Part shown: one piece after another, positions 1,701 through 25,011 of the stretch
Position numbering within the stretch: the first letter of the stretch is position 1
Layout of the letters: every line of letters starts with the position of its first letter
Assembly (NCBI GenBank): GCA_943789275.1
Contig: CALSTM010000002.1
Coordinates: 210,001-242,000, forward strand
Direction of reading: 5' to 3'
Length of the DNA stretch: 32,000 nt
Origin: Candidatus Poseidoniaceae archaeon
GTDB lineage: Archaea; Thermoplasmatota; Poseidoniia; Poseidoniales; Poseidoniaceae
The notes under the pieces: generated by a model
Seen by the model: only the letters and a program-made list of their open reading frames with translations
Databases searched by the model: none
Told to the model about the DNA's origin: nothing
Program-made: the position numbers and the translations under genes

Positions 1701-2161
1701 CACTGCTCACCTCCTTTGAATTCGACGCCTTCCATGGTCATCTGAGAACGCATGTGGGCAATTGAACGGTATGAACCACCCTTTGCTTTGAGGTAGTATC
1801 GACGGTATTGAGAAGGTTCGATGGTTTCATCTTCACGAAGTTCCTTGAGAACACGTCGTTGTGAACGGATAGTTCGCATCCATCGGTTCTTACGAGGGTT
1901 TCGAGCGTTGGCTGTACCGGCTCTCTTACCTTGTCCCTTTCGTCGTCCCTTGCGCTTCTGCTCAAGACGAGCACGAGCACGGACTCTGGAAGTCCCCTTG
2001 ATTGGCTTTGCCTTAATCCATCCTTCTTCGATGAATTCACGAATATCATCGGTTTGAACTGCAGATGAGATTTGGTCAAGGTATGCTGGATTAATCCAAA
2101 CACGGTGAACACCGCACTTGAGTAACTTAGCTGCTAGGCGCTTTTGATTCGTAATTTGCAT
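1700..2161 (-). CDS. rpl19e: 50S ribosomal protein eL19
   Basis: MQITNQKRLAAKLLKCGVHRVWINP..., a typical eL19 N-terminus. The track start at 2164 is TTG. ATG at 2161 follows GGAGGG and overlaps the rpl32e stop by 1 nt. Confidence 0.95.
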   Translation of the reverse strand: MQITNQKRLAAKLLKCGVHRVWINPAYLDQISSAVQTDDIREFIEEGWIKAKPIKGTSRVRARARLEQKRKGRRKGQGKRAGTANARNPRKNRWMRTIRSQRRVLKELREDETIEPSQYRRYYLKAKGGSYRSIAHMRSQMTMEGVEFKGGEQ

Positions 2162-2775
2162 CAAATATCCCTCCTTCGGTTGAGGACACGAATACCGAGT
2201 TCATCGGCACGTGAGTAGATTTGTTCTCGCTTTCGTCCACCAACACTTCGACCAACGCGTGCAGCTTCAGTTTCAGGGTCAATGGTTTCGAGATCGAGTG
2301 TGTTCTGCACCATGATTTCACGGAATCCAGATGGGTGCAGTCCACGAGCAGCGGCGACTTTTCCGTGACCAACACGGACAAGTGCACTGCGGTATTTGTA
2401 ATTGCGTCGTTGTTTGCTGTCCATACCGTGAGGCGCTCTCCAGCCTGAGCGAGAAAGACGCTTGTATCGGAACCATTCAGTACGACGGAACGATGGAGTC
2501 TTCTTCTTTTGCTCAGATCGCAGTGAGAGAGCGGCTTTAGTATCATCATCAAGAACTGGTTTTTGCTTTGCGACGTGCCCTTCAGCAACATCGTCATCCC
2601 AATCACCATCATCGTCCCAATCCTCGTCGGAATCGTTCGATGCGGCCTCTTCGCTGCCGTTGGCTTCTACCAAACGGGCGATGAGGTCTGATTTCTTACC
2701 GGAGACCGGTAGGTCAGCAGCCTTGAGAAGCTCTTTGAGTTCTGCAACAGTCATTTTTTCGTAATCTTCTGCCAT
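2161..2775 (-). CDS. rpl32e: 50S ribosomal protein eL32 with N-terminal SAP-like motif and acidic Trp/Asp linker
   Basis: C-terminal ~115 aa (KKTPSFRRTEWFRYKRLSRSGWRAPHGMDSKQRR...GFREIMV...) is eL32-like. The N-terminal ~70 aa is an extension (see findings). AGGAGTGA SD precedes ATG 2775. Confidence 0.9.
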   Translation of the reverse strand: MAEDYEKMTVAELKELLKAADLPVSGKKSDLIARLVEANGSEEAASNDSDEDWDDDGDWDDDVAEGHVAKQKPVLDDDTKAALSLRSEQKKKTPSFRRTEWFRYKRLSRSGWRAPHGMDSKQRRNYKYRSALVRVGHGKVAAARGLHPSGFREIMVQNTLDLETIDPETEAARVGRSVGGRKREQIYSRADELGIRVLNRRRDI

Positions 2776-8342: not shown

Positions 8343-8840
8343 TCACTTGAGAGCCACGTGCTTCGACGAACGTGTTGCACCGACACCAGGGCCGCTGTGA
8401 GCGACTCCTCTTCGGGTAATAGCGAATTCACCAAGGTAATGACCAATCATTTCCGGCTTGATATCGACTGGGACAAAGTTTTGTCCGCTGTAGACCGAGA
8501 TGGTCTTACCGACGAATTCTGGAAGGATTGGCATATCTCTGCGGTGCGTACGAACGGTCTTGCCGTTGGAACGTCGAACACGGTGAAGGAAATGTTCGTT
8601 CTCTTCTGAGAAACCTCGGACCATCGAGCGGCGTGCTCGAGCAGAGAGAATTGTAGCAATACATTCTGCGCCTGGGTTATCTTCAGGTGGGAAGAGAGGC
8701 ATATTGGACAACTCTTCAACAGAGTATCCACGGTACGTGAATTCTTTCTTCACTCGGCCAGTGGTTGTCGAAAGGCGCTTACGTGCCTTACGTCGGCTGG
8801 CTTTCGGGGTCATAAAGGACTTCTTCTTCTTACGTGCCAT
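8343..8840 (-). CDS. rps19: 30S ribosomal protein uS19
   Basis: FTYRGYSVEEL...VRTHRRDMPILPEFVGKTISVYSGQNFVPVDIKPEMIGHYLGEFAITR, the archaeal/eukaryotic uS19 pattern. GAGGTGA SD. Confidence 0.95.
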   Translation of the reverse strand: MARKKKKSFMTPKASRRKARKRLSTTTGRVKKEFTYRGYSVEELSNMPLFPPEDNPGAECIATILSARARRSMVRGFSEENEHFLHRVRRSNGKTVRTHRRDMPILPEFVGKTISVYSGQNFVPVDIKPEMIGHYLGEFAITRRGVAHSGPGVGATRSSKHVALK

Positions 8841-11990: not shown

Positions 11991-12126
11991 TGATGTATTT
12001 TTGTTCTGTCAATCATGAAAAAGTCCCCGGTAAAGAAGTCTTCTTCCAACCAACACGGCATTTCAATTCACTTTCACAAGCAGACCCCACACTATCCTTT
12101 TGAACCCTCGACCCAAAAGTAGGGTC

Positions 12127-14796
12127 ATGGCAGTGGTGGTGCATCCTTTTCTCAAAGAGGGCGTACAAGCTCGAGCCTACCAAATGATGGTGCTGCGAAA
12201 CACTCTAGCAGCATCTACGCTCATGGTCATGCCAACAGGTTTTGGAAAAACCGCTGTTGAGTGGATGGCTATGGCTGAAGCTCTTCGACTGAACGTTGGA
12301 AAGATTCTACTTCTCGCTCCAACCACAGGACTTGTCGAACAACAGCAACGGATGGCCCAGGAAATGCTTCAGTTGGACGAAAAACTCATCGTCAGTTATA
12401 CCGGCGAGAATGCTATTGCTCAACGCCCAGCAATCTGGGAGGAGGCAAGCGTGGTTATGGCGACAGCCCAAGTGATTCGAAACGATGCTGCAAATGAACG
12501 CATTGACTTATCTGAAGTTGGCTTGCTTATCGTCGACGAAGCACACCACGGGACCGGTAATCACGCTTATGCCCAAGTTGGTAACATGTACCGTAAGGCA
12601 TGCGAAGGCCATACGGCACCGAAGATACTTGGCGCTACAGCCAGTCCAGGCACCACAGAAAGTAGTATACTGGAGGTGGTAAAAAACTACGACTTTGATT
12701 ATCTCGAGGTCTCTCGCAAAGAGGACGCTATGCTTCAACCGTATGCAGTGGAAATGAATACTGTCCCTCATAGATTACCACTACCAGAGGAACTTTACCT
12801 TTTGATGCGCCCATTGCAAGACCATTTCGACTTAGAAGCAAAACATCTCCAAGACATGGGGTTCCTTTCTCCAACATCATACATCTCCGGGAAAATGATC
12901 AACGAAGCACAGCGAAGGGCGAGTCAAGCCATCCAGAAACGAGATGTTCGCGGCTACGATGCTGCCCGACGCATAGGTGACTTGCGAAGACTCCATATTC
13001 TTCTTGACTTGATTCAAACTCAAGGTCTTAAGGCAGCAGTATCGTTTCTAGATCGAGCAGAGGAAGACGGGCGAAGCGGGGAGAGAACAACCAACCGATT
13101 TGTAGCGAAACCTGCTGTCCACCAGTTTAGAATTGCCACAAAGGATGTGCAAGAGTATCATCCGAAACCAGGTTATGTTCGCGAGTTAGTAAAGAAACAA
13201 CTCCAACAACACCCCAACAGTAAGATCATTGTTTTCACAGAATATCGAGATACTGTCGAAAATCTTGTCTCCATTTTGGAATCTATAGAAGGGGCTAAAC
13301 CGGACCGTTTTATTGGCCAGTCTGGTAAAGGTAAACGGAAAGGAATGACGCAAAAGCAACAACTAGGACAACTGCAACGTTTCCGTGATGGAGACATGAA
13401 TATTCTCGTTGCTACATCGGTGGGTGAAGAAGGATTGGATGTACCGGCTGCAGAACTGGTCATTCTCTACGAACCTGTGGCCAGCGCAATTCGTACCATA
13501 CAACGCAGAGGGAGAACAGCTCGTCAGCAAGCAGGAACGGTTCACACGCTGATTGCAGAACAAACGCGAGATGAATTTGTCAACAGCGCAGCCGGAAAGC
13601 GAGAGGAAAGGATGTACCGCTTGTTAAAACGAATACGCAAACGAGGATTTATTCCCTCAAGGCCACCTGCCTCTGATGCTGTTTTCGAAGCCTTTCGTAT
13701 TCGTATTGATGAGGATTTAATCTCGGTGCCCACTTTCATTGAAGTGGAAAAGAAAAGAATAGAAGCCTTACTTCCAGCGCCTAAACCGATTCAATCTGAA
13801 GAAAAGAAGACGTCGAAGAAAGAAAGAGGCATACCCGTTATTGCTCCTTCAGATCGGAGGCATAGCCACCAAATGGGGCTTGAACAATTTGCATCCAACC
13901 CCTCGCCTAAGCCGAGTAAAGTTGAGAACAACAAGCCATCGATGCGTACGGTTTGGCCCGAACCAATACTGGACGGTGAAGCGCATCGCCATCAAGAGAA
14001 CCTCGCATCTGCGGCAGCATCTGCAATTGCCTCAGAAATGAACGATGTGGAGAAACAAGACATCAGCATCACTCTTGACCATCGAGAGGCTTCCTCAACA
14101 CTCGGAGCCTATTTGAGGAGCAGGGGGGCAACAGTCCACTTCAGTCATCTAAACGAAGGTGACATTCGAATTTCCGAGCGTATACTCATCGAGAGAAAAA
14201 CTGCACGAGACCTTGTTAATTCTCTAACTGACGGTCGATTGCTCAGTCAGTGCCGACGTTTGATTGCTTCATCCTCACGGCCGATGTTGCTTATCGAAGT
14301 TGGCGAAGTTCACGGGCAATTTGTCCATCCCAATGCAGTCCATGGAGCGCTGGCTCACGTGAGTCTGGATTTAGGGATTCCAGTAATGATGACCAAAAAT
14401 CCTGAAGAAACTGCCCATTTCATCATCGCAGCAGCAAAAAGAGAGCACGATATGATCGAGAAGATGGCTGCTCTCGCCCAAGGCCGAACTCAAAGCCATG
14501 AAGATGAAAGAAGTATTGAGAGAGCAATTTCTGCTGCGCTTTCTGAAATCAAAGCCATCGAACTGGACAATGAAATACCAACACCGCTTGCTGGGAGATG
14601 GACTGAACATCAAAGAAAAGTATCCGTGGATGTTCTTTCGGCCATACCGGGAATTGGGGCGAAAAAGGCGGAATCAATGGTGGATGCATTCAGCACACTC
14701 TCTGGTGTTTTTTCAGCATCCGTTGAAGAATTAAGCAGATGTGAACACGTCGGTTCAGCAAGTGCATTGAGAGTGTTTGAAACACTGCATGAGTGA
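12127..14796 (+). CDS. hef: Hef: helicase-associated ERCC4/XPF-family structure-specific endonuclease
   Basis: SF2 helicase motifs MPTGFGKT, IVDEAHH, ILVATSVGEEGLDVPAAELVILYEP and QRRGRTAR. A long low-complexity linker follows. ERCC4 nuclease signature LDHREA ... GDIRISERILIERKTARDL (GDxnERKx3D). C-terminal (HhH)2: LSAIPGIGAKKAESMV...VGSASALRVFETL. The track start at 12100 is TTG; the first ATG is 12127 (MAVVVHPFLKEG...). Confidence 0.9.
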   Translation: MAVVVHPFLKEGVQARAYQMMVLRNTLAASTLMVMPTGFGKTAVEWMAMAEALRLNVGKILLLAPTTGLVEQQQRMAQEMLQLDEKLIVSYTGENAIAQRPAIWEEASVVMATAQVIRNDAANERIDLSEVGLLIVDEAHHGTGNHAYAQVGNMYRKACEGHTAPKILGATASPGTTESSILEVVKNYDFDYLEVSRKEDAMLQPYAVEMNTVPHRLPLPEELYLLMRPLQDHFDLEAKHLQDMGFLSPTSYISGKMINEAQRRASQAIQKRDVRGYDAARRIGDLRRLHILLDLIQTQGLKAAVSFLDRAEEDGRSGERTTNRFVAKPAVHQFRIATKDVQEYHPKPGYVRELVKKQLQQHPNSKIIVFTEYRDTVENLVSILESIEGAKPDRFIGQSGKGKRKGMTQKQQLGQLQRFRDGDMNILVATSVGEEGLDVPAAELVILYEPVASAIRTIQRRGRTARQQAGTVHTLIAEQTRDEFVNSAAGKREERMYRLLKRIRKRGFIPSRPPASDAVFEAFRIRIDEDLISVPTFIEVEKKRIEALLPAPKPIQSEEKKTSKKERGIPVIAPSDRRHSHQMGLEQFASNPSPKPSKVENNKPSMRTVWPEPILDGEAHRHQENLASAAASAIASEMNDVEKQDISITLDHREASSTLGAYLRSRGATVHFSHLNEGDIRISERILIERKTARDLVNSLTDGRLLSQCRRLIASSSRPMLLIEVGEVHGQFVHPNAVHGALAHVSLDLGIPVMMTKNPEETAHFIIAAAKREHDMIEKMAALAQGRTQSHEDERSIERAISAALSEIKAIELDNEIPTPLAGRWTEHQRKVSVDVLSAIPGIGAKKAESMVDAFSTLSGVFSASVEELSRCEHVGSASALRVFETLHE

Positions 14797-15657
14797 TTAG
14801 CCGCCGATGACCAGTGCACGTGTTCGAAGTTGTGCGAACCGGTCAGGGTAGTGGCCTAAAGCAAAGGCAACCATCTCAGCAAGGTGAAGAATAGGCATTG
14901 TGGTGTCTTTACGAGCAATTTTACCTGCTTTGGATTGATAAGAATCGAGGTTTGCATGGGAGATGGTGCATGCCGAGACAATGAGGTCTGCACCGCTTGA
15001 TTTAGCGTCGGAAAGAACGGCCGCAGTCATTCGCATTACCGGTTTATTGATGGTCAGCAACGAAGGCGCACCTACGCTTTGACATTTCAGGTCGTATTCG
15101 ACTGGTGTACCGCCAAGAGCCGTGATGAGTTGTTCCATGTAGGTTGGCATGAATGGGTCATCATCACCACAGGCTCCACTGCGTTGCATGCTTGAGCCGT
15201 AATATGCGGCTACATTCAACCGAAGAGGATTAATGACTGCATCTCGAACTTTTTCCAATCCGATTTCTTCGACCAAGAAATGCAGTAGATGACGAGATTG
15301 AGATTCACCGTTGTATTCGATGCCTGATGTACGGGCCACGATGTTGTTGACATGGTTTGCAAAACTGCGGTCTTCCTTGAACTCGTCAATTGTGTCGCAC
15401 ATGATGCCATGGCTGGTCGCACAGGTTGTCAGAACATCAAGGCCTTTGGATTCTGCAAGAGCGAGGTTGCGTGCAACCAATGCGTGCTGAAGCTTCGGTG
15501 AGGATTGCTTGATGATATTGCCACCGTCACTGCTTGCTTTGGGTATTTCAGTTAATTGAATGCCGAGAGTCTTGCACAGTGGTTGAATGCAATCTTCAAC
15601 TTCAGAAGACGCTGCACGAGCAGCATTACCGGGATAATATGCGATTTTCACAGCCAT
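14797..15657 (-). CDS. HdrB / SdhE(SdhC) / TfrB-C-like protein with two degenerate CCG domains (cluster cysteines mostly lost)
   Basis: 286 aa, collinear with remembered HdrB: KIAYYPGN.., KASSDGGN, LDVLTTCATSHG, LNVAAYYGSS, VEYDLKCQSVGAP, DLIVSACTISHANLD, MPILHLAEMVAFALG. GAGGTGGA SD; 9 nt downstream of the preceding gene. The stop codon abuts the convergent hef stop with zero spacer. Confidence 0.8.
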   Translation of the reverse strand: MAVKIAYYPGNAARAASSEVEDCIQPLCKTLGIQLTEIPKASSDGGNIIKQSSPKLQHALVARNLALAESKGLDVLTTCATSHGIMCDTIDEFKEDRSFANHVNNIVARTSGIEYNGESQSRHLLHFLVEEIGLEKVRDAVINPLRLNVAAYYGSSMQRSGACGDDDPFMPTYMEQLITALGGTPVEYDLKCQSVGAPSLLTINKPVMRMTAAVLSDAKSSGADLIVSACTISHANLDSYQSKAGKIARKDTTMPILHLAEMVAFALGHYPDRFAQLRTRALVIGG

Positions 15658-15666
15658 AATTCCACC

Positions 15667-17634
15667 TCAGAACCTCTGGTCAATTTCATTGAATAGGCTG
15701 ACAACTTCATGGTGTGCGACAACCTTGCTGTTGATCATGTTCGGGATTTTACCGATTCCGGCAGGTGGTGCAAGAAGTGCTTGTAGACTGCGGAATGGAG
15801 GGGCTCCAGTACGAGTAAAACCAAGGAACATTCGGGCAGATACACCATCGAAGATGTTGCTCAAGAGACCAACTGGCCCGAGAACCTGACGGTAAAGTGT
15901 GGTTTCATTGACGTTCCCACTCCATTTCACACTGCGGCCGTACCACTTGACAAGTCGGCCGTGGGGTCCCGAATAGTTGGTAGAGTTCAATAATTTACCA
16001 CGAGCAGTGTTGAGCGCCTTAGAGGCAGTACGGCCGTCAGAGCCGTACCGAGCAACGGATGTGAAATCTGTTTCAGCCCAAACACCGTGCTCACTACCAA
16101 TGGATGCCATCAAGGCATCTCGCTGAGACTCACCGGTTCGTGGGTCGACACATCGATTCCATTGTTGCAACAAAATGCCGGGACCCATGTAATCGGAATC
16201 GTAAGCGAATGTGTCTGACATCGATTGAAGCAGTTGGAAAGAGACAACGTCTCCCATTGCGTGGAGAGTTAACGCAGTTGCAGCCTCCATGGTACCCATT
16301 GCGCTGCCGTTGAGGAGGGTGTGACCGTCACGTGGGTCCGCCTTCATCCATGGTTCACTGGCTGAGCGAGAGGATTCGTACGATGAATAATCAACAACAA
16401 GGTCTCGAACAACAGGATAACCTGGAAGAGGTTCTACTTTGAGAACGCCACCTTCGTTAACCAAGTCACTGATTTGAACAAGGTCGGCCAAAACAGTACG
16501 GCCGTTAACTCGGACCCCCGAAGTCGGAGAACCGTTGCTGTTGCCTCTGCGGAAGGCGAGACTGCCATCGACATCTTGCTGAACAGCGAGGAGAAGGTCC
16601 TCGACGGTTGCATGGCCAGGGACTGCACAAGCAATTGTATCCCATCCGGAGTCTGCCGCTTCGGGGCAGTATCGGAATAAAGAGAGGGTGATTGAAAGAT
16701 CTTCTTGTACAATCACGCCAGGTGTGAAATCGCCTTCAACGGCTTCCTCACCAGAGCCTGAACCGTAGGCAATCATCTCATCGAGAAGTACTTCTTGTAA
16801 AGTTCCTGATTCATCAACACAAGCAATCATTGGTAGTGCTTCAGCAACCCATTGACCCCAAGGCGTATCAAAGTCAACGTCGCACAATTGAGTCGTATGA
16901 ACTTTGTTTGCACCGAGTTCGACATACTTCTCATCCCAGTCCGTTCCAGCTTTACAAAACTCATCGTAAGAGGAATCTCCAATGGCACAGATACTGAATG
17001 AAACGCCTGAAAGAGATGGTGCCTGGGCACTCACTGATTGCCAAAGCGATTCGGCGTTATCCGGCATTTCTCCTTCGCCCCAAGTTGACGTGATGATGAG
17101 AGTACGCTTGTGTTGAGCGAGCGAAGCTGGGTCAAATCCGTCCATGTCATAGACGGTAGGGACCAGTCCGTAGTTGGCTGCAAGTTTTGCAGTCTTCTCT
17201 GCAAGTCCAGCAGCGTTGCCTGTTTGGGAACCGAAAAGAATGGCAAGAGAGCGGTCCCCTCCACCAAGAAGGGCTTGGAGTTCATCGCTACCGCCAGTGG
17301 CAACAGCGACGGCCGCAGCAGGTGCTGCTGCTACCTCGGCTGCAGGTGCAACTTCTGCTACTGTTTCCACAGCACCATCAGTTTGCAGTTCGAATTTGAT
17401 AATCTCAACAGGACAAGCCTCTGCAGCCTCGAGAATCATTTCACCGTAATCGGTGCCTGTTGAGCCTGCCATAGCGGCACCGCCAACGTTGCGGTCAAGA
17501 ACCCCATCCATGCGAACGGCGGCTAAAATCTTCGACGTGTCATCAGAAACAATGAACACTTCAGGACAGATGTCCTGACAAGCGTCACATGTGATGCAAT
17601 CTTCTTCAATCCACACCTTTGCTACGATGGTCAT
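15667..17634 (-). CDS. fusion protein: single-cluster ferredoxin + flavodoxin-like FMN domain + cysteine-less SdhB/FrdB-like domain + unknown C-terminal region
   Basis: The track start at 17649 is GTG. ATG 17634 follows GAGGGTGA (MTIVAKVWIEEDCITCDACQDICPEVF...EACPVEII). Flavodoxin motifs: AILFGSQTGNAAGLAEK, LIITSTWGEGEMPDNA, FSICAIGDSSYDEF. SdhB-like motifs: LFRYCPE, LAFRRGNSNGSPTSGVRVNGRTVLAD, VEPLPGYPVVRDLVVDY, YMGPGILLQQWNRCVDPR. Confidence 0.8.
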   Translation of the reverse strand: MTIVAKVWIEEDCITCDACQDICPEVFIVSDDTSKILAAVRMDGVLDRNVGGAAMAGSTGTDYGEMILEAAEACPVEIIKFELQTDGAVETVAEVAPAAEVAAAPAAAVAVATGGSDELQALLGGGDRSLAILFGSQTGNAAGLAEKTAKLAANYGLVPTVYDMDGFDPASLAQHKRTLIITSTWGEGEMPDNAESLWQSVSAQAPSLSGVSFSICAIGDSSYDEFCKAGTDWDEKYVELGANKVHTTQLCDVDFDTPWGQWVAEALPMIACVDESGTLQEVLLDEMIAYGSGSGEEAVEGDFTPGVIVQEDLSITLSLFRYCPEAADSGWDTIACAVPGHATVEDLLLAVQQDVDGSLAFRRGNSNGSPTSGVRVNGRTVLADLVQISDLVNEGGVLKVEPLPGYPVVRDLVVDYSSYESSRSASEPWMKADPRDGHTLLNGSAMGTMEAATALTLHAMGDVVSFQLLQSMSDTFAYDSDYMGPGILLQQWNRCVDPRTGESQRDALMASIGSEHGVWAETDFTSVARYGSDGRTASKALNTARGKLLNSTNYSGPHGRLVKWYGRSVKWSGNVNETTLYRQVLGPVGLLSNIFDGVSARMFLGFTRTGAPPFRSLQALLAPPAGIGKIPNMINSKVVAHHEVVSLFNEIDQRF

Positions 17635-17736
17635 GCTTGTCACCCTCACTTACGTGTCGTAAGCAATTATTCCCACCATGGAGGGGCCTTTCAAGGTTCG
17701 CTTTTATCCCCATCAAAGAAGGCCTTCAATTTCGAG

Positions 17737-19472: not shown

Positions 19473-22400
19473 TTAAGCCTGTCCATTTTGTTCAAGCCAC
19501 ATTTGACCGTAGACATTCCACTGTTCCATGGTCCATCCATCAGGCAAACCTGCTGCTGGAACCGGCGGAGCAGTATCCGCAGTGCTCAAGTTTGGAGATG
19601 GAGCGGAAGGTGCCTGAACGATAGGTGCTGCTGCTGGAGGTGCTCCGGCGGGTGGAGCGATGGATGGAAGTGACTTCGGAACTTCGTATGCAGCGCCAGC
19701 GACTGGAACGGTTGGTGCGGCTGCTACAGCGCCGTAGGTTGCTTCAACACTACCTTCGTAGCCTTCTTCACCCCAGCCACCGTAATCATCTTCTTCTTCC
19801 TCTTCAGTAAGGATTCGGAAGATAACCCCTACACCGATGACAAATACCACGATGAAGCCAATCCAAGTTAGTATTGAGCCCATGTCGATGCCACTGGAAT
19901 CTCCGCCAGTACCGTCGGTGGAAAGATCTGAACCGGTTTTGACCAATTGAAGTTGTAAAGTGGTGCTTGCCGCGTCACTGACTGTTTGAGATTCTGCCCA
20001 TAGAGTAAGGTTGGTGAACAGAGAATCACTACCCAAATTGTTGAGAGTTGTGGATGAAACGGTGAAGATGACAGTGACTTGGCGTTCCTCCTCGACTGCC
20101 AATGAGAACGTTCGGTCGCCGTTGGCAAGCTTTGATTGAACCCAATTCGAAGATTCACCACTGTCAAGATTCATAGAGACCGATTGTGCAGTCGTGTATT
20201 GATTTCGGACGGTGACGGTCATCGACCATGCATCAACGGGTTCTGCCTCGTCAATAACCAGCATTTCTGTTGGAATGATTTTCAACCAGTTCTGAGAGCC
20301 GACCAAGTAGGTTGCTGAGCCGGACGAACTGATACTTGCGTCGTTGACGCTCGTTGCAATGATGTTAAGCAGCAACTGCCCTTCTGTACCGTCCACGAAG
20401 GAGAAGCGAACCGAAACGTTGTAACTGCTACCGGTTGGGATTTCAGGAGTCATGCCATCAAAGAGGTTTGTGAACTCTACGTTCATCCCCGCAGGGGCGT
20501 TGGAAGTCATTGTGAACCTGTCAACGCTGTTTCCATCGTTGAACACTTCAAACTGCATAGTTTGGGCAGCTTGTCCCGGAATGTAGGATTGGTCTGCATC
20601 TTCGTCTGAAACACGAACAGCAGCAGTATCGAGAATGTCGACGGTGAGGCTGATTGAGGATTTAACTGTAGGATCATCAACGCTGGTTGCTGTCACAGTA
20701 AGGCTGTACAGTTGCGGAGCCAATCCAATCGGCATAGGAAGATTGAGTTGAATAATCGATGAACCATCCCAAGCGTCCATGACCGCAGTTTGGCTGCTTG
20801 CCAAGTTTGCACCAAGTTGCCAGTTCTGTTGAGTCAAAGAGAGATCGTATTGCTCATCATCGTTACCGATGTTGTAAATGCTGATGTAAACCTTCTTCGA
20901 CACGCCATTCGCTGGGCCAGAGATATCTGTAGTGTCCGTTTCCAGAGAGACTTGGCGTAGAACTGGGACTTCGATGTTACGAGAAAGGACATCGTTACCG
21001 AATAAAGCGCCGCATGAAGGACAGGTTGCCCGAAGAGTGAAAGAAACCGTTCCAGGATTCGCTTGAGTTGCGGCAGTAATGTTGAGTTGCAAGTTGATGC
21101 TCTGCCCACGGCCAACATAAACTGGATTCGAGACGGATGCACCTGTGTCGTTCACAAGCAGCGCAGACCAATCATCCTCGGAGAAAGTGGTAGCGAGGTT
21201 GAATGAAGCATCTCGGTTTCCAGAGTTTTGCAAACGGAACGGAACCATGCCAGATTGGCCTGGTCCGAACGAGCCGGCTTGAAGACCAACGGTCGATGTG
21301 AGAGAGACACCAAATTGTTCGGTAACCCCTACAGAAGCGGAAAGTCTTGCTTTCTCACCCGAGTTCTGTCCCGAGGCATCCGTAAACCAAAGTTGCCAGA
21401 TGAGTTGCTGGACATCTGCGCCTGGGGGAATGGTAAGGTTGACCCATAGGTCAACAGAACCGCCACCAGGAATTGGAGGGATGAGAATGCTGGTGTCGTG
21501 ATCACCAACCAAAGTCGAGTAACCTGCACCGTTAATGTACACTGCATCTTGGCGAATCATTGGATTGGCAGGGTCCATCCATGTCAAATTGGAAATGTTT
21601 GATTCCGAGCGTATTGCAGCAGGAGCGTATCCGTTGTTGGTGACCGTACAATACAAGCTCAAAAGGTCACTTGGTGGTGCAGAATAGCCGTTTTCAGGAG
21701 CATCGCAACTCACGTCTAAGGTGTATTCTTGCACCTTACGAACACCAAATTGAATCCAGTCGTCCACGTGGAATCCTTCTGTCGCATCGCTGCTGTCGCT
21801 TCGAAGAACCATGCCCATTGAGTACGAGTTGCCGCCAAGGAATACATTTTGGTTGGTCACATATGGGTTTTGCAAGTAAGTCACTTGAGGGTCCCAACTG
21901 ATACGAGTCCATTGGTCAGGTGCTTGGCTTGGGTTGCCTTGGGAGATGTCATAGACAATGGATTCGTTGATGTTTTGCCCACCGGAACCACGCCACATCT
22001 CAATCGAGACGCTGTCGCCAGATGCCACACTGCCCCATGCTTGGATATGAATTTGGGAAGAGATATAGTTCGATGCATAGAAGACGTTTCGACAAATCCA
22101 TGTGCCGTACACCTGAGACATTCCGGCGTCGAGTTGCCCATTTGCACCGCAGTTGTTTCCGTTCGTTGAAATGAAGGAATTGACCAGGCGGTCGTGTGCA
22201 TTGGAAGGATAGTTGTTGCCTGCTTCAGCATTGCCCCAATGCTTTGAGCCAACGGCTCCACCCGAAAGGTCAGCCCAAGAACCATCCCCGTTTGCATTTC
22301 CACCATCGACCGGATAACGAGCAGGGATGAACGTCGAAGATTGAGTGGTTGTTCCATCAAACGAATCCTTCATGATGGCGATTGGTACCGTCTTTTCCAA

Positions 22401-22901
22401 CATGTCGTTTTCGTTACGGTCGTCACCGTTCGAATCTTTGTCAAGCATGGCCCGCAAGATGAGTCCTCCGGAAAGGTCGTTGGTGGTCGTATCGAGTACG
22501 GAGTGTGCTGCTGTCGGTGTCCAAAGGAAGGTTTTCGAGTCACTTTGACCACCGATAAGCAGTCCTGAAGTCCACGTGAATGTTTCCATGACGTATCCAA
22601 TGGGATGAATGATCTGAATCATAGCGACGCTGTCTTTACCGGTGAAAGAATTACCTCCACGTTGAATTTCCATACCAACTTCAATGGTGTCACCCTCAAA
22701 CATGTACTCAACAATTGTACCGTTTGATTGAGTCCACTCTTGGGCAGGTACGCTTGCGTTTCCAAGAGAAATGGAAACCACACGGAAATCATCGTTCGCT
22801 CCGCCACGGCCAGCAGTTGCACTGGCAGGAGCAGCCATTCCCATGGCAAGGGTTTGGAGCAACAATAGGGCAACAAGGGTCAACGGAGTGATACGACGCA
22901 T
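19473..22901 (-). CDS. very large secreted surface protein with C-terminal transmembrane anchor and 111-aa cytoplasmic tail
   Basis: ATG 22901 (MRRITPLTLVALLLLQTLAMGMAAPASA, signal-peptide-like) follows GGAGGT. The body contains several ~100-aa segments with the V..L...N.GN....F.L pattern of CARDB/NEW3-type beta-sandwich repeats; this is a motif impression, not an HMM result. TM segment ILTWIGFIVVFVIGVGVIFRIL, then an acidic and Ala/Pro-rich tail. Confidence 0.8.
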   Translation of the reverse strand: MRRITPLTLVALLLLQTLAMGMAAPASATAGRGGANDDFRVVSISLGNASVPAQEWTQSNGTIVEYMFEGDTIEVGMEIQRGGNSFTGKDSVAMIQIIHPIGYVMETFTWTSGLLIGGQSDSKTFLWTPTAAHSVLDTTTNDLSGGLILRAMLDKDSNGDDRNENDMLEKTVPIAIMKDSFDGTTTQSSTFIPARYPVDGGNANGDGSWADLSGGAVGSKHWGNAEAGNNYPSNAHDRLVNSFISTNGNNCGANGQLDAGMSQVYGTWICRNVFYASNYISSQIHIQAWGSVASGDSVSIEMWRGSGGQNINESIVYDISQGNPSQAPDQWTRISWDPQVTYLQNPYVTNQNVFLGGNSYSMGMVLRSDSSDATEGFHVDDWIQFGVRKVQEYTLDVSCDAPENGYSAPPSDLLSLYCTVTNNGYAPAAIRSESNISNLTWMDPANPMIRQDAVYINGAGYSTLVGDHDTSILIPPIPGGGSVDLWVNLTIPPGADVQQLIWQLWFTDASGQNSGEKARLSASVGVTEQFGVSLTSTVGLQAGSFGPGQSGMVPFRLQNSGNRDASFNLATTFSEDDWSALLVNDTGASVSNPVYVGRGQSINLQLNITAATQANPGTVSFTLRATCPSCGALFGNDVLSRNIEVPVLRQVSLETDTTDISGPANGVSKKVYISIYNIGNDDEQYDLSLTQQNWQLGANLASSQTAVMDAWDGSSIIQLNLPMPIGLAPQLYSLTVTATSVDDPTVKSSISLTVDILDTAAVRVSDEDADQSYIPGQAAQTMQFEVFNDGNSVDRFTMTSNAPAGMNVEFTNLFDGMTPEIPTGSSYNVSVRFSFVDGTEGQLLLNIIATSVNDASISSSGSATYLVGSQNWLKIIPTEMLVIDEAEPVDAWSMTVTVRNQYTTAQSVSMNLDSGESSNWVQSKLANGDRTFSLAVEEERQVTVIFTVSSTTLNNLGSDSLFTNLTLWAESQTVSDAASTTLQLQLVKTGSDLSTDGTGGDSSGIDMGSILTWIGFIVVFVIGVGVIFRILTEEEEEDDYGGWGEEGYEGSVEATYGAVAAAPTVPVAGAAYEVPKSLPSIAPPAGAPPAAAPIVQAPSAPSPNLSTADTAPPVPAAGLPDGWTMEQWNVYGQMWLEQNGQA

Positions 22902-22988
22902 AAGACCAACGAAACCTCCGAGATTCACGCGGCATATAGAGATGGCCATTTGATGACCAGACAGAGGTCACGAGGATTTACTTCAAAT

Positions 22989-24320
22989 TCACTTCGATTT
23001 GCGTAACCCGCTAATCGATGGCTGGTCGTAAGTTGGTGCTGCCACGGCCTCTTGCACACCCTCGCTCAATCGTTCTGCAGTTTCCTTCTGGTCAAACAAA
23101 TCACCGATCCCTTGGAATTGAAGATCTTCGGGTTGCGACGGTATCGATTCTACAACGCTTGAGGCTTCTTCAAGAGATGATACCCCTTGTGCTGCTGAAT
23201 GGAGATGTGAAGGGGCCTGAACCGCTAAAGAAGTCCCTGTTACGGCTGCACTCGCAGCCTGTACCGCCGTCGTCGCCTTACTTGCAAGAGCGGTACCAGC
23301 AACCACTGCTGCAGTCGTAGCGGCGGAGGCTGCGATTCCCGCCCCTTTGCTAACAAGGCCTGCGGTTTTCGAAGGCGGTTTTTGTACAGCGGTCGGGTTT
23401 TGAAATTCGTACATCCATTCGGGTGGATCCGCTGAGCCAGCGCCAAGAACTGCCATGGTGGTAAAAGCGGCCAAGGGCATGACTGCCAACGCTGTAAGTA
23501 AATCAAGGAAAGAAGTTTCAGGAACTGAAGCGATGGACAGTGAAGACTCAAATAATTCCTTTTCTAAGTTGATGTTAAGATCGAGGTCAGGGCCCATCCA
23601 TCCGATAACGGCCACACTTGCTACGCGTCCAAGAAGCCACAACACGAGAACTGGAGCCAGCCAAGAGAGTTTCGTCATCGAGATCAGCCATTTTCGAGTG
23701 AAGGATGCAATTCCGATGTATTTTTCCGCAATTCGAGGAAAAACCCTCATGATGGATAAAAGTCCGAACAGATAAACAAGCAGAGCCATCTCAAGTCTTC
23801 GTTCAGGATGCATCATCGTGTCAGGGATAAGTAAAACAAGCATCAGCGGAACGGTTGCCAACACCACTTGGAACGGTACAGCCAGTAAGATAAGGCCACC
23901 GTGAGTGGACAGAATAGTATGACCATCGACCCATCGTTCATGAGCTAAAACGGTCAATCGCCCGTGAGGTGACTGGGCGTACTTTTTGCGCACAAATCGT
24001 CTTGAAAAGGCATCCGATTTCCCCCTACTGAGTCCTAAAAATCGTAACCATCCGCCCTTTTCAACGACACGAAGTGGCATGAACCCTCCAATCAACAGCG
24101 CCAACAGCAAAGCCATCATCCCATACATCATAGAGGCTGCAATAATCCAAGGCAACATATCCCAATCGAAGGATAATGCCGCTCCCTCGTCGGCAAGCGA
24201 GAATTGAAAAAAGTAAGTAATCAAAAATGCTGCTAAAGGCGTGAGAAAAACTTGACAAAAGGCGACGATTGTCAGCCATACTCGGGGTATGAGCGTTTTA
24301 CGTCGCGCATACCTCCCCAT
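22989..24320 (-). CDS. polytopic membrane protein of unknown function with Ala/Thr-rich C-terminal tail
   Basis: 443-aa ORF with multiple hydrophobic segments (e.g. WLTIVAFCQVFLTPLAAFLITYFF, IIAASMMYGMMALLLALLIGGF, LILLAVPFQVVLATVPLMLVLLI). Low-complexity tail AGIAASAATTAAVVAGTALASKATTAVQAASAAV. No family recognised. Confidence 0.6.
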   Translation of the reverse strand: MGRYARRKTLIPRVWLTIVAFCQVFLTPLAAFLITYFFQFSLADEGAALSFDWDMLPWIIAASMMYGMMALLLALLIGGFMPLRVVEKGGWLRFLGLSRGKSDAFSRRFVRKKYAQSPHGRLTVLAHERWVDGHTILSTHGGLILLAVPFQVVLATVPLMLVLLIPDTMMHPERRLEMALLVYLFGLLSIMRVFPRIAEKYIGIASFTRKWLISMTKLSWLAPVLVLWLLGRVASVAVIGWMGPDLDLNINLEKELFESSLSIASVPETSFLDLLTALAVMPLAAFTTMAVLGAGSADPPEWMYEFQNPTAVQKPPSKTAGLVSKGAGIAASAATTAAVVAGTALASKATTAVQAASAAVTGTSLAVQAPSHLHSAAQGVSSLEEASSVVESIPSQPEDLQFQGIGDLFDQKETAERLSEGVQEAVAAPTYDQPSISGLRKSK

Positions 24321-24405: not shown

Positions 24406-25011
24406 TCATTCCTCTTCAGACGGAGGAATATTCTCAAAGAATGCCAGGATGGAGTGACCGTCTGTAAACAGCAGATACAGCAAACCAAGCGGACGGCGTT
24501 CACGTCTTTTGCGGCCCAAGTCTGGGCGAGGCATATTCGAGAGTTTAGCCTTACAATTGACGCAGTATATTCCAGTAACCCCCCAGTAAGGAGAAGCCCA
24601 GTTACAACAACCACCCGAAACTTCGGCTTCATTTGCAATGATTTGCAGTTGATTTGCCATATCTCGAGTCCAAGGTGGAACCATACCGCCGACAAAGTAC
24701 TGCAGGCGATTGAAAACAAGCCAACTGCTGGAGGTTAAAAGCCCGAAACCAAACGCAGCATTCCCCCAGCGTACCGATGCCAAACCAAGCCCCAAGGGCA
24801 GCACAACGACAACGAAACTCATCCAGTAAAACATGCGCATATGGAGCACGCGTTGGGTGAGGTGAGGTGACAGGGGAATCGGTTCAGGGTGGGGAGGAAA
24901 CTTCGTGTTGAATCCTCTGGTACGAGACAACATCAAAAATGGAAAACGAGGCAAAAAAGTACCCAGGAGAACGCCAAGGAAGAAAAATCCTATGGCTGCT
25001 AAAAGATTCAT
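24406..25011 (-). CDS. small membrane protein with C-terminal four-Cys motif, unknown function
   Basis: 201 aa with three hydrophobic segments, then GGCCNWASPYWGVTGIYCVNCKAKL (CC...CxxC) and a basic stretch. AGGTGAG SD; starts 9 nt after the aminotransferase stop. Confidence 0.6.
   Translation of the reverse strand: MNLLAAIGFFFLGVLLGTFLPRFPFLMLSRTRGFNTKFPPHPEPIPLSPHLTQRVLHMRMFYWMSFVVVVLPLGLGLASVRWGNAAFGFGLLTSSSWLVFNRLQYFVGGMVPPWTRDMANQLQIIANEAEVSGGCCNWASPYWGVTGIYCVNCKAKLSNMPRPDLGRKRRERRPLGLLYLLFTDGHSILAFFENIPPSEEE

Follow-up and report, generated by a model that had tools for sequence, protein, structure and literature searches.

To our knowledge, SdhB, the iron-sulfur (Fe-S) subunit of complex II, is among the most conserved of electron-transfer proteins, and its ligand cysteines are near-invariant. 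Canonical sequences carry the pattern C-x4-C-x2-C-x11-C for the [2Fe-2S] cluster, C-x2-C-x2-C-x3-C for the [4Fe-4S] cluster and C-x2-C-x2-C-x3-CP for the [3Fe-4S] or second [4Fe-4S] cluster. The SdhBs of non-classical complexes (317-330 aa; PRK12576/PRK12577, MFR SdhB) are set apart from the classical ones of 240 aa by a C-terminal extension. In type E enzymes, SdhE was proposed to act as a monotopic anchor whose cluster may have only a structural role (Hamann et al. 2008, PMC2754724). Here, a stretch of 32,000 nucleotides (contig CALSTM010000002.1, positions 210,001 to 242,000; hereafter the window) from a Marine Group II (MGII) archaeon was analysed, in which a gene for a ferredoxin-flavodoxin fusion protein (the fusion) ends in a long SdhB-like segment without any of the cluster ligands and is followed by a gene for an HdrB/SdhE-like protein (the partner).

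The window belongs to the Poseidoniales, family Poseidoniaceae, and contains a thermosome gene, a gene for a Hef helicase/nuclease and an operon of archaeal ribosomal proteins; the closest relatives of the fusion carry the names Poseidoniales or Poseidoniaceae. As far as we know, MGII rank with the most abundant archaea in the surface ocean; none has been cultured, and what is known of their respiratory chain comes from annotation only.

SdhB homology and the cluster-ligand columns

The open reading frame (ORF) of the fusion as called mechanically (15667-17649, minus strand, 660 aa) starts with GTG. Homologues begin at MTIVAKVW and a Shine-Dalgarno-like GAGGGTGA stands 7 nt before the ATG at 17634; therefore, the real start is probably at 17634, which gives a protein of 655 aa. 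Residue numbers below follow this protein and those of the initial annotation are 5 higher, so that the SdhB-like segment placed there at 16030-16698 as aa 318-540 (ORF numbering) corresponds to aa 313-535. The fusion gene and its SdhB-derived parts are the following:

15667-17634, minus strand: fusion gene, 655 aa plus stop, encoding ferredoxin, linker, flavodoxin, linker and a cluster-less long SdhB
16378-16686, minus strand: SdhB N-terminal ([2Fe-2S]-type, Fer2_3) domain, aa 317-419, ligand-free, by Pfam, E. coli SdhB alignment and hhalign
16030-16377, minus strand: SdhB C-terminal (two-cluster, helical) domain, aa 420-535, ligand-free, by NCBIfam, hhalign and Foldseek
15670-16029, minus strand: C-terminal extension, aa 536-655, with homology to that of long SdhBs (317-330 aa, PRK12576/PRK12577-type)
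15754-15822, minus strand: family-specific insertion of ~22 aa, GFTRTGAPPFRSLQALLAPPAGI, within the extension; a template gap in hhalign and in MAFFT

Judged by sequence comparison, the C-terminal 345 aa of the fusion is a full-length homologue of long, type E-like SdhB. Profile searches recognized the Pfam domain Fer2_3 (2.4e-11, 44 bits against a cut-off of 27) and the NCBIfam SdhB family PRK05950 (1.4e-20, aa 319-525). The score for the latter, 73.5 bits, lay under its cut-off of 228, as did that for TIGR00384 (67.5 bits against 88), and every curated SdhB cut-off was missed. With phmmer, the E. coli SdhB chain 2wp9_B was matched at 7e-11, and E. coli and mitochondrial SdhB structures were matched at 1e-10 to 1e-8. 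When 10 family members were compared with 21 canonical long SdhBs by hhalign, a probability of 100 and an E-value of 2.6e-46 were obtained over 313 columns, with a match that begins at the first strand and ends at the last helix. When an AlphaFold2 (AF2) model was searched with Foldseek, the best matches in the PDB were all SdhB/FrdB chains (8gs8_B, E 7.6e-12, ~245 columns), the confidence of the model being moderate in the SdhB-like core (predicted local distance difference test, pLDDT, 70-85).

The initial annotation, which was aligned by eye, had described an SdhB/FrdB-like domain with its framework retained despite the loss of ligands. Both statements were upheld by the profile alignments, the profile-profile comparison and the fold search, the similarity being significant at the hhalign and NCBIfam E-values given above. 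In the N-domain, the framework kept comprises FRYxP, DGSLxFR, VNG and PLPGxxVxRDLxVD. The last 120 aa had been taken as 'unknown' and are now identified as the long-SdhB extension, since the hhalign match runs to the C-terminus of both profiles and a MAFFT alignment with proteins P0161, P0165, P0166 and P0173 agreed.

Within this framework, residues other than Cys were found at 12/12 cluster-ligand columns of the fusion, by hhalign and MAFFT alike. In the MAFFT alignment, the [2Fe-2S] columns held N365, a gap, S372 and D384; hhalign moved the first two of them, so that the gap falls on the first Cys and the second is matched by S369. The columns of the [4Fe-4S] site (S2) and of the first ligand of the [3Fe-4S]/second [4Fe-4S] site (S3) were occupied by V463, F466, L469 and S473, and those of S3 and the fourth S2 ligand by E521, F524, V527 and G531. 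The absence of Cys from all three Fe-S sites, as first proposed, thus stood up to both alignments, with the correction that the nearest relatives carry 12 ligand Cys where 11 ligand columns had been assumed. The by-eye alignment was right in the family assigned and wrong for the CxxCxxCxxxC motif, which was offset by ~6 residues; its counterpart is DVVSFQLLQSMS and not TLHAMGDVVSFQ, and this leaves the conclusion unaltered. Alignment also agreed that the three Cys left in the domain sit off the ligand columns. Cys336 (window ~16627-16629), in the motif DTxxC, is kept in at least 90% of 57 aligned members and matches no SdhB ligand.

The same was seen throughout the family (n=223, to 35-38% identity): 11 ligand columns were never Cys, and the sole Cys ever present on a ligand column was at the third [2Fe-2S] position (C65-equivalent), in 21 of the 223 members. 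Clusters could in principle still be held by non-Cys ligands such as Asp, Glu, His or Ser, as E. coli SdhB has an Asp at one [2Fe-2S] position in the alignment, and S473 and E521, which stand on ligand columns, are invariant (223/223). However, each former site has at most one or two polar residues and none offers even three candidate ligands, whereas 7 of the 12 columns hold hydrophobic residues, Gly or a gap, most of these being variable. Coherent His/Asp substitute ligands were sought on the cluster columns of the 223 members and none were found; we regard clusters held in this way as highly improbable. Because most ligand columns apart from those of S473 and E521 hold hydrophobic or variable residues, the pattern suggests a filled core and not a new metal site.

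The extension was the best-conserved part of the fusion, with a conservation of 0.66 against 0.53-0.56 in the core, and its rate of non-synonymous substitution (dN) was about one quarter of that of the core. The insertion within it reads GFTRTG...PPAGI, is absent from canonical long SdhBs, and includes an invariant RMxxGFTRxG. When the extension was modelled alone with AF2, pLDDT remained below 50, and a structure search found no solved structure that spans it. A segment that is conserved yet poorly modelled alone is as would be expected if the extension folds against a partner.

Distribution, selection and the partner gene

An exhaustive family search of 1.84 billion representative proteins recovered members down to 38% identity, below which a sharp gap separated them from the canonical SdhBs (E 1e-54 vs 1e-15); no intermediate with part of the clusters retained was present among these representatives. 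The cluster names of the nearest canonical SdhBs were Nitrospirota only or lacked taxonomy, and no Poseidoniales SdhB was identified by this route, nor by a filter on amino-acid composition, which had no discriminating power. Relatives of the fusion were encoded in 339 species genomes, with one genome scanned per species, and the members belonged to Poseidoniaceae (MGIIa), Thalassarchaeaceae (MGIIb) and deeper lineages. Every member found in these groups was without the ligands, and the loss is ancestral to the clade, a point that had been raised in the initial annotation. No member retains ligands, unlike the decay series of the partner described below; the loss in the SdhB-like part came first, or at least before the radiation of the family.

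Locus L070 (NZEQ01000037.1), binned as 'Verrucomicrobiales bacterium', carries a Poseidoniales-type fusion and partner at 65-71% identity and is probably mis-binned.

Synteny was compared in 80 GTDB loci, in loci L081-L087 and in the window. The gene order thermosome, fusion, CCG partner, convergent Hef and ribosomal operon was kept in every case (88/88 sequences) and persisted across MGIIa, MGIIb and the deeper lineages at 35-45% identity. Compared with the closest relative, the ratio of non-synonymous to synonymous substitution (dN/dS) was 0.019 in the SdhB-like core and 0.014 in the extension; dozens of alignment columns were invariant, and reading frames were intact in hundreds of genomes. 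The fusion and its partner are a functional, vertically inherited core gene pair. The total loss of cofactor ligands resembles decay, and some database entries are frameshifted fusions (P0122), so that the gene could be a functionless relic in decay or a product of faulty annotation or assembly. We give this explanation virtually no credence, as it is ruled out by a dN/dS of ~0.02, by the invariant columns, by intact frames and relatives in 339 species and by a synteny in which the coupled partner is kept.

The partner and its junction with the fusion are the following:

14797-15657, minus strand: partner gene, 286 aa, full-length HdrB/SdhE-like protein with two CCG domains
15658-15669, minus strand: gene junction, in which the TGA stop is followed by the Shine-Dalgarno-like GGTGGAATT and by the start ATG of the partner gene

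On direct reading of the sequence, the partner starts 9 nt past the stop of the fusion, behind a GGTGGA motif. Its start lies 10-20 nt past the fusion gene in 80/80 related loci, and the two genes abut in L083 and L084. The two genes are co-transcribed, and the immediate series of stop, Shine-Dalgarno-like motif and ATG indicates translational coupling. In two database proteins, P0122 (507 aa) and P0168 (422 aa), an SdhB-like gene is joined by frameshift or read-through to the CCG gene that follows it; P0168 represents a canonical Cys-containing pair, and the same sdhB-sdhE order is found in canonical relatives.

The best family match of the partner was HdrB (TIGR03288, 1.3e-39), followed by MFR SdhE (1.1e-37), both far under the cut-offs (136 vs 345 bits), and the HdrB chain 8rvv_B of the PDB was aligned at 1.1e-32 over residues 4-269 (266 residues). 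A conserved C-terminal tail, PDRFAQLRTR, is absent from HdrB. In the two CCG motifs (CXnCCGXmCXXC), the Cys positions are occupied by N, S, D, C and S in the N-terminal copy and by S, S, V, C and S in the C-terminal one. As only 2 of the 10 motif Cys remain, the partner cannot hold the Fe-S clusters or the zinc site that are known from HdrB and SdhE (PMC2754724).

Among homologues, the first CCG motif was complete, with all 5 Cys, in the deep lineages L081/L082 and L087, both of which have ferredoxin-only fusions. In L083-L086 about half of it is missing, and 108 of the 112 other partner homologues have lost it, as have the Poseidoniaceae; the second motif was destroyed in all members. From these sequences, the loss of Cys in the partner appears as a stepwise decay series. 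The partner gene of the deep lineages lies at 11764-12624 in L081 and at 11351-12214 in L087, the latter on a 3.0-Mb contig. Assignment of the deep lineages with an intact CCG motif to MGIIc, a deep-sea family, was considered, and their G+C contents (53% in L081, 69% in L087) do not settle it.

These deep lineages would be the only ones in which the partner could plausibly be a catalytic CCG-type enzyme, reducing a disulfide or a quinone with electrons from the tethered carriers of the fusion, while the SdhB-like part served as an adaptor. The complete first motif beside ferredoxin-only fusions in L081/L082 and L087 is in line with such an enzyme, as are the HdrB family match and the fact that the CCG proteins of other enzymes pass electrons on to disulfides or quinones (PMC2754724). 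On the other hand, both motifs are destroyed in the window and in those 108 homologues, yet the proteins are still under strong constraint, and the motif lost in all members is the second one, to which HdrB mutagenesis cited in the same work assigned the [4Fe-4S] cluster. We consider a catalytic partner distinctly unlikely.

Tethered redox domains and the possible role of the pair

The domains of the fusion that precede the SdhB-like segment, and their linkers, are the following:

17395-17607, minus strand: single-cluster ferredoxin domain (Fer4_13), aa 10-80; PF13370 at 2.6e-8, 34.8 bits against a cut-off of 24.5
17242-17394, minus strand: Ala/Val/Pro/Glu-rich flexible linker, aa 81-131, AEVAPAAEVAAAPAAAVAVATGG; AF2 pLDDT <50 at 73-114
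16864-17241, minus strand: flavodoxin (flavin mononucleotide, FMN) domain of the CysJ/cytochrome P450 reductase (CPR) type, aa 132-257; Pfam Flavodoxin_1 (PF00258) at 2.6e-27
16687-16863, minus strand: second inter-domain linker, aa 258-316; conserved ACVDESGTLQ helix, then an acidic Gly/Ser stretch

The ferredoxin motif C-x2-C-x2-C-x3-CP ... CP is intact, reading CITCDACQDICP ... ACP in the translation, and the domain is predicted to hold a single [4Fe-4S] or [3Fe-4S] cluster. The flavodoxin domain scored 96.2 bits for Flavodoxin_1 against a cut-off of 25, was modelled by AF2 with a pLDDT of ~90, and matched the FMN domain of CysJ in the PDB (1ykg_A) at 1.7e-18 with SQTGNA, TSTWGEGEMPDNA and GDSSYDEFC aligned; its FMN loops are intact and binding of FMN is predicted. 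The first linker differs in length and sequence among homologues. In the second one, the AF2 model has a helix at 281-291, and a pLDDT below 50 at 293-307; the ACVDESGTLQ sequence was taken from the alignment consensus. The set of carriers also varies within the family, with 131 members having flavodoxin only, 51 ferredoxin plus flavodoxin, 18 two flavodoxins and 5 ferredoxin only. In some relatives, the second flavodoxin replaces the ferredoxin at the N-terminus, and protein P0131 bears a second, degenerate ferredoxin domain.

On balance, the best reading of the pair, and a modestly probable one, is that of a membrane- or complex-anchored ferredoxin/flavodoxin that feeds low-potential electrons to the quinone pool or to a respiratory complex. 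The fusion and the partner would still bind each other as an SdhB-SdhE-type heterodimer, through the highly conserved extension, as in type E succinate:quinone reductases. This heterodimer would be redox-inert and could serve as a rigid scaffold, a docking platform or a monotopic anchor, the redox chemistry having been shifted from the SdhB-like part to the N-terminal domains. On their flexible Ala/Pro-rich linkers, the ferredoxin and flavodoxin domains would be tethered swinging electron carriers, and an anchored ferredoxin/flavodoxin follows from such a combination of scaffold and carriers. The electrons could come, for example, from 2-oxoacid:ferredoxin oxidoreductases, and at the scaffold they would most plausibly pass to quinones of the membrane pool or to a respiratory complex. 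The constraint is strongest at the extension and not at the N-domain, which faces SdhA in complex II, as judged by dN and by conservation. A lower number of Fe-S clusters and the exchange of ferredoxin for flavodoxin would also fit life in iron-poor, oxygen-rich surface water.

Several points weigh against this reading. No conserved neighbour gene points to an electron donor or acceptor, and the extension is the segment that AF2 models poorly in isolation. The invariant residues S473, E521, D523 and R529 could form a site, and the partner of the two deep lineages with an intact first CCG motif may be redox-active or catalytic. Finally, the 'sdhC' of MGII complex II may be the partner gene, which leaves a direct link to SdhA/SdhB open.

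The existing annotation of the pair appears to be in error. In public records, the fusion apparently goes under 'cysJ' or 'sulfite reductase flavoprotein', while 'sdhC', 'SDH cytochrome b subunit' and 'HdrB' apparently serve as names of the partner. The label of the fusion is misleading because the protein lacks the reductase domain for flavin adenine dinucleotide (FAD) and NADPH: the TIGR01931 cysJ profile was matched at positions 59-203 of 597 only, with 121.9 bits against a cut-off of 668, and a Pfam search of the fusion returned no FAD_binding_1 or NAD_binding_1 match. According to the supplement of Tully 2019 (PMC6336850), sdhA and a separate sdhB are MGII core genes alongside 'cysJ', and in its file 12 a single 'sdhC' cluster is core in MGII (96% and 92%), with no sdhD listed. 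That 'cysJ' is very likely the fusion, and the 'sdhC' is probably the partner gene because JGI gives the partner a K00241-style name. What has been reported as the 'canonical complex II' of MGII may therefore derive in part from this pair. In the literature, no account of the pair was found beyond automatic annotations in MGII studies.

As the main alternative, the pair could belong to an iron-sparing complex II or fumarate reductase, in which the cluster-less SdhB would dock on an SdhA-type flavoprotein and the SdhE-like partner on the membrane, with the swinging FMN/ferredoxin domains, in place of a fixed wire of three clusters, carrying electrons between FAD and the quinone site. Descent from an sdhB-sdhE (or TfrB-like) module and the retained framework of the SdhB N-domain speak for such an enzyme, as do the K00241-style name, the probable identity of 'sdhC' with the partner and the lack of a listed sdhD; many SdhA-like gene clusters are also recorded in MGII (Tully 2019 supplement, PMC6336850). 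However, that study counts a distinct single-cluster 'sdhB' as core (92% of MGIIa and 90% of MGIIb genomes) beside 'cysJ' (100% and 99%), and therefore a canonical wire exists in MGII. In the window and the 87 other loci, tblastn found no SdhA-like gene within ~10 kb, with an E. coli SdhA sequence as the query, and no second SdhB. The [2Fe-2S] loop on the SdhA side is both shortened and variable, being the least conserved part, and the N-domain is under less constraint than the extension. A low-potential ferredoxin or flavodoxin is, moreover, a poor match for the succinate/fumarate couple. An iron-sparing complex II is in our view somewhat unlikely.

In Poseidoniales, the electron exit of a type E complex II may have been rebuilt as a protein-only shell of cluster-less SdhB and cluster-less SdhE, in which up to five fixed Fe-S clusters gave way to one or two mobile FMN/ferredoxin domains; this we hold to be unlikely. 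If true, the shell would be either an iron-sparing succinate/fumarate:quinone enzyme working with SdhA or a previously unknown, non-pumping ferredoxin/flavodoxin:quinone oxidoreductase, and the latter would explain how ferredoxin is re-oxidized in these Rnf-less aerobes. The CCG decay series and the swaps of ferredoxin for flavodoxin would then record a stepwise adaptation to iron-poor, oxic surface water.

For the anchored ferredoxin/flavodoxin that we prefer, the tethered carriers would be a missing link from ferredoxin-producing catabolism to the membrane chain, and would illustrate in a definite instance how marine heterotrophs economize on iron. A lineage-wide SdhB without its ligand Cys, under strong purifying selection, next to a partner that loses its clusters stepwise, would be a rare and datable instance of an Fe-S wire turned scaffold, of relevance to the evolution of complex II and of Fe-S proteins and to the bioenergetics of marine archaea.

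Neighbouring genes and comparison with known systems

Other genes of the window showed features of their own. Three ORFs of the minus strand had no Pfam match (19473-22949, 1158 aa; 22989-24320, 443 aa; 24406-25011, 201 aa); Pfam-less genes of 1101-1165 aa and 369-375 aa stand at matching positions beside the thermosome gene in the distant lineages L081-L087, and these may be conserved lineage-specific proteins. The Hef of the window (12100-14796) and of other lineages has 857-968 aa and an ERCC4 nuclease domain, whereas the Hef-like helicases of L085 (12550-14313) and L086 (5928-7691) have 587 aa and lack that domain. Among the ribosomal proteins, L32e (2161-2775, minus strand) has an N-terminal SAP (DNA/RNA-binding) domain (Pfam 1.4e-15), an unusual archaeal ribosomal fusion. 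S19 (8343-8840, minus strand) has 165 aa with the Pfam domain at 71-148 only, L4 (9848-10729, minus strand) has 293 aa against a profile of 190 positions, and L22 (7739-8332, minus strand) has 197 aa against 104, which suggests lineage-specific extensions or insertions in these over-long proteins.

Among described proteins, the SdhB-like part of the fusion is closest to the long, type E-like SdhB/FrdB (PRK12576/PRK12577; MFR SdhB NF042952), to which both subdomains and ~90 aa of extension align end to end, and which likewise has a CCG-domain (SdhE-type) gene downstream of it, as in the canonical P0168. The fusion differs in having 0/12 ligand Cys, scores below the cut-offs, fused ferredoxin and flavodoxin domains, the insertion of ~22 aa, and no adjacent sdhA. 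The partner resembles the SdhE of the type E succinate:quinone reductase of Sulfolobus and HdrB (PF02754 x2) in length, in full-length alignment (1e-32) and in its place downstream of an SdhB-like gene, whereas it keeps only 2/10 motif Cys and has the C-terminal tail PDRFAQLRTR. In thiol:fumarate reductase, TfrB unites SdhB-like and CCG modules in a single chain, and the fusion gave a weak NCBIfam match to it (3.1e-9); the pair described here consists of two genes, has no clusters and has no TfrA/SdhA gene nearby.

The flavodoxin domain shares its fold and FMN-binding loops with the FMN domains of CysJ and CPR and with short-chain flavodoxins, but the fusion is without the FAD/NADPH reductase domain that distinguishes CysJ and CPR. 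As an analogy only, without any sequence relationship, the lipoyl domains of the E2 subunits of 2-oxoacid dehydrogenases are also swinging carriers on Ala/Pro-rich linkers in variable copy number, the carriers of the fusion being redox proteins. By descent, the SdhB-like domain belongs to the long, type E-like class of the SdhB superfamily, a family described by TIGR00384 and by PF13085 with a PF13183-type C-domain; as it fails all three ligand sets and the score cut-offs, it should not be classed as an SdhB by function, and the like applies to the partner with regard to SdhE/HdrB and to the flavodoxin domain with regard to its 'cysJ' label.

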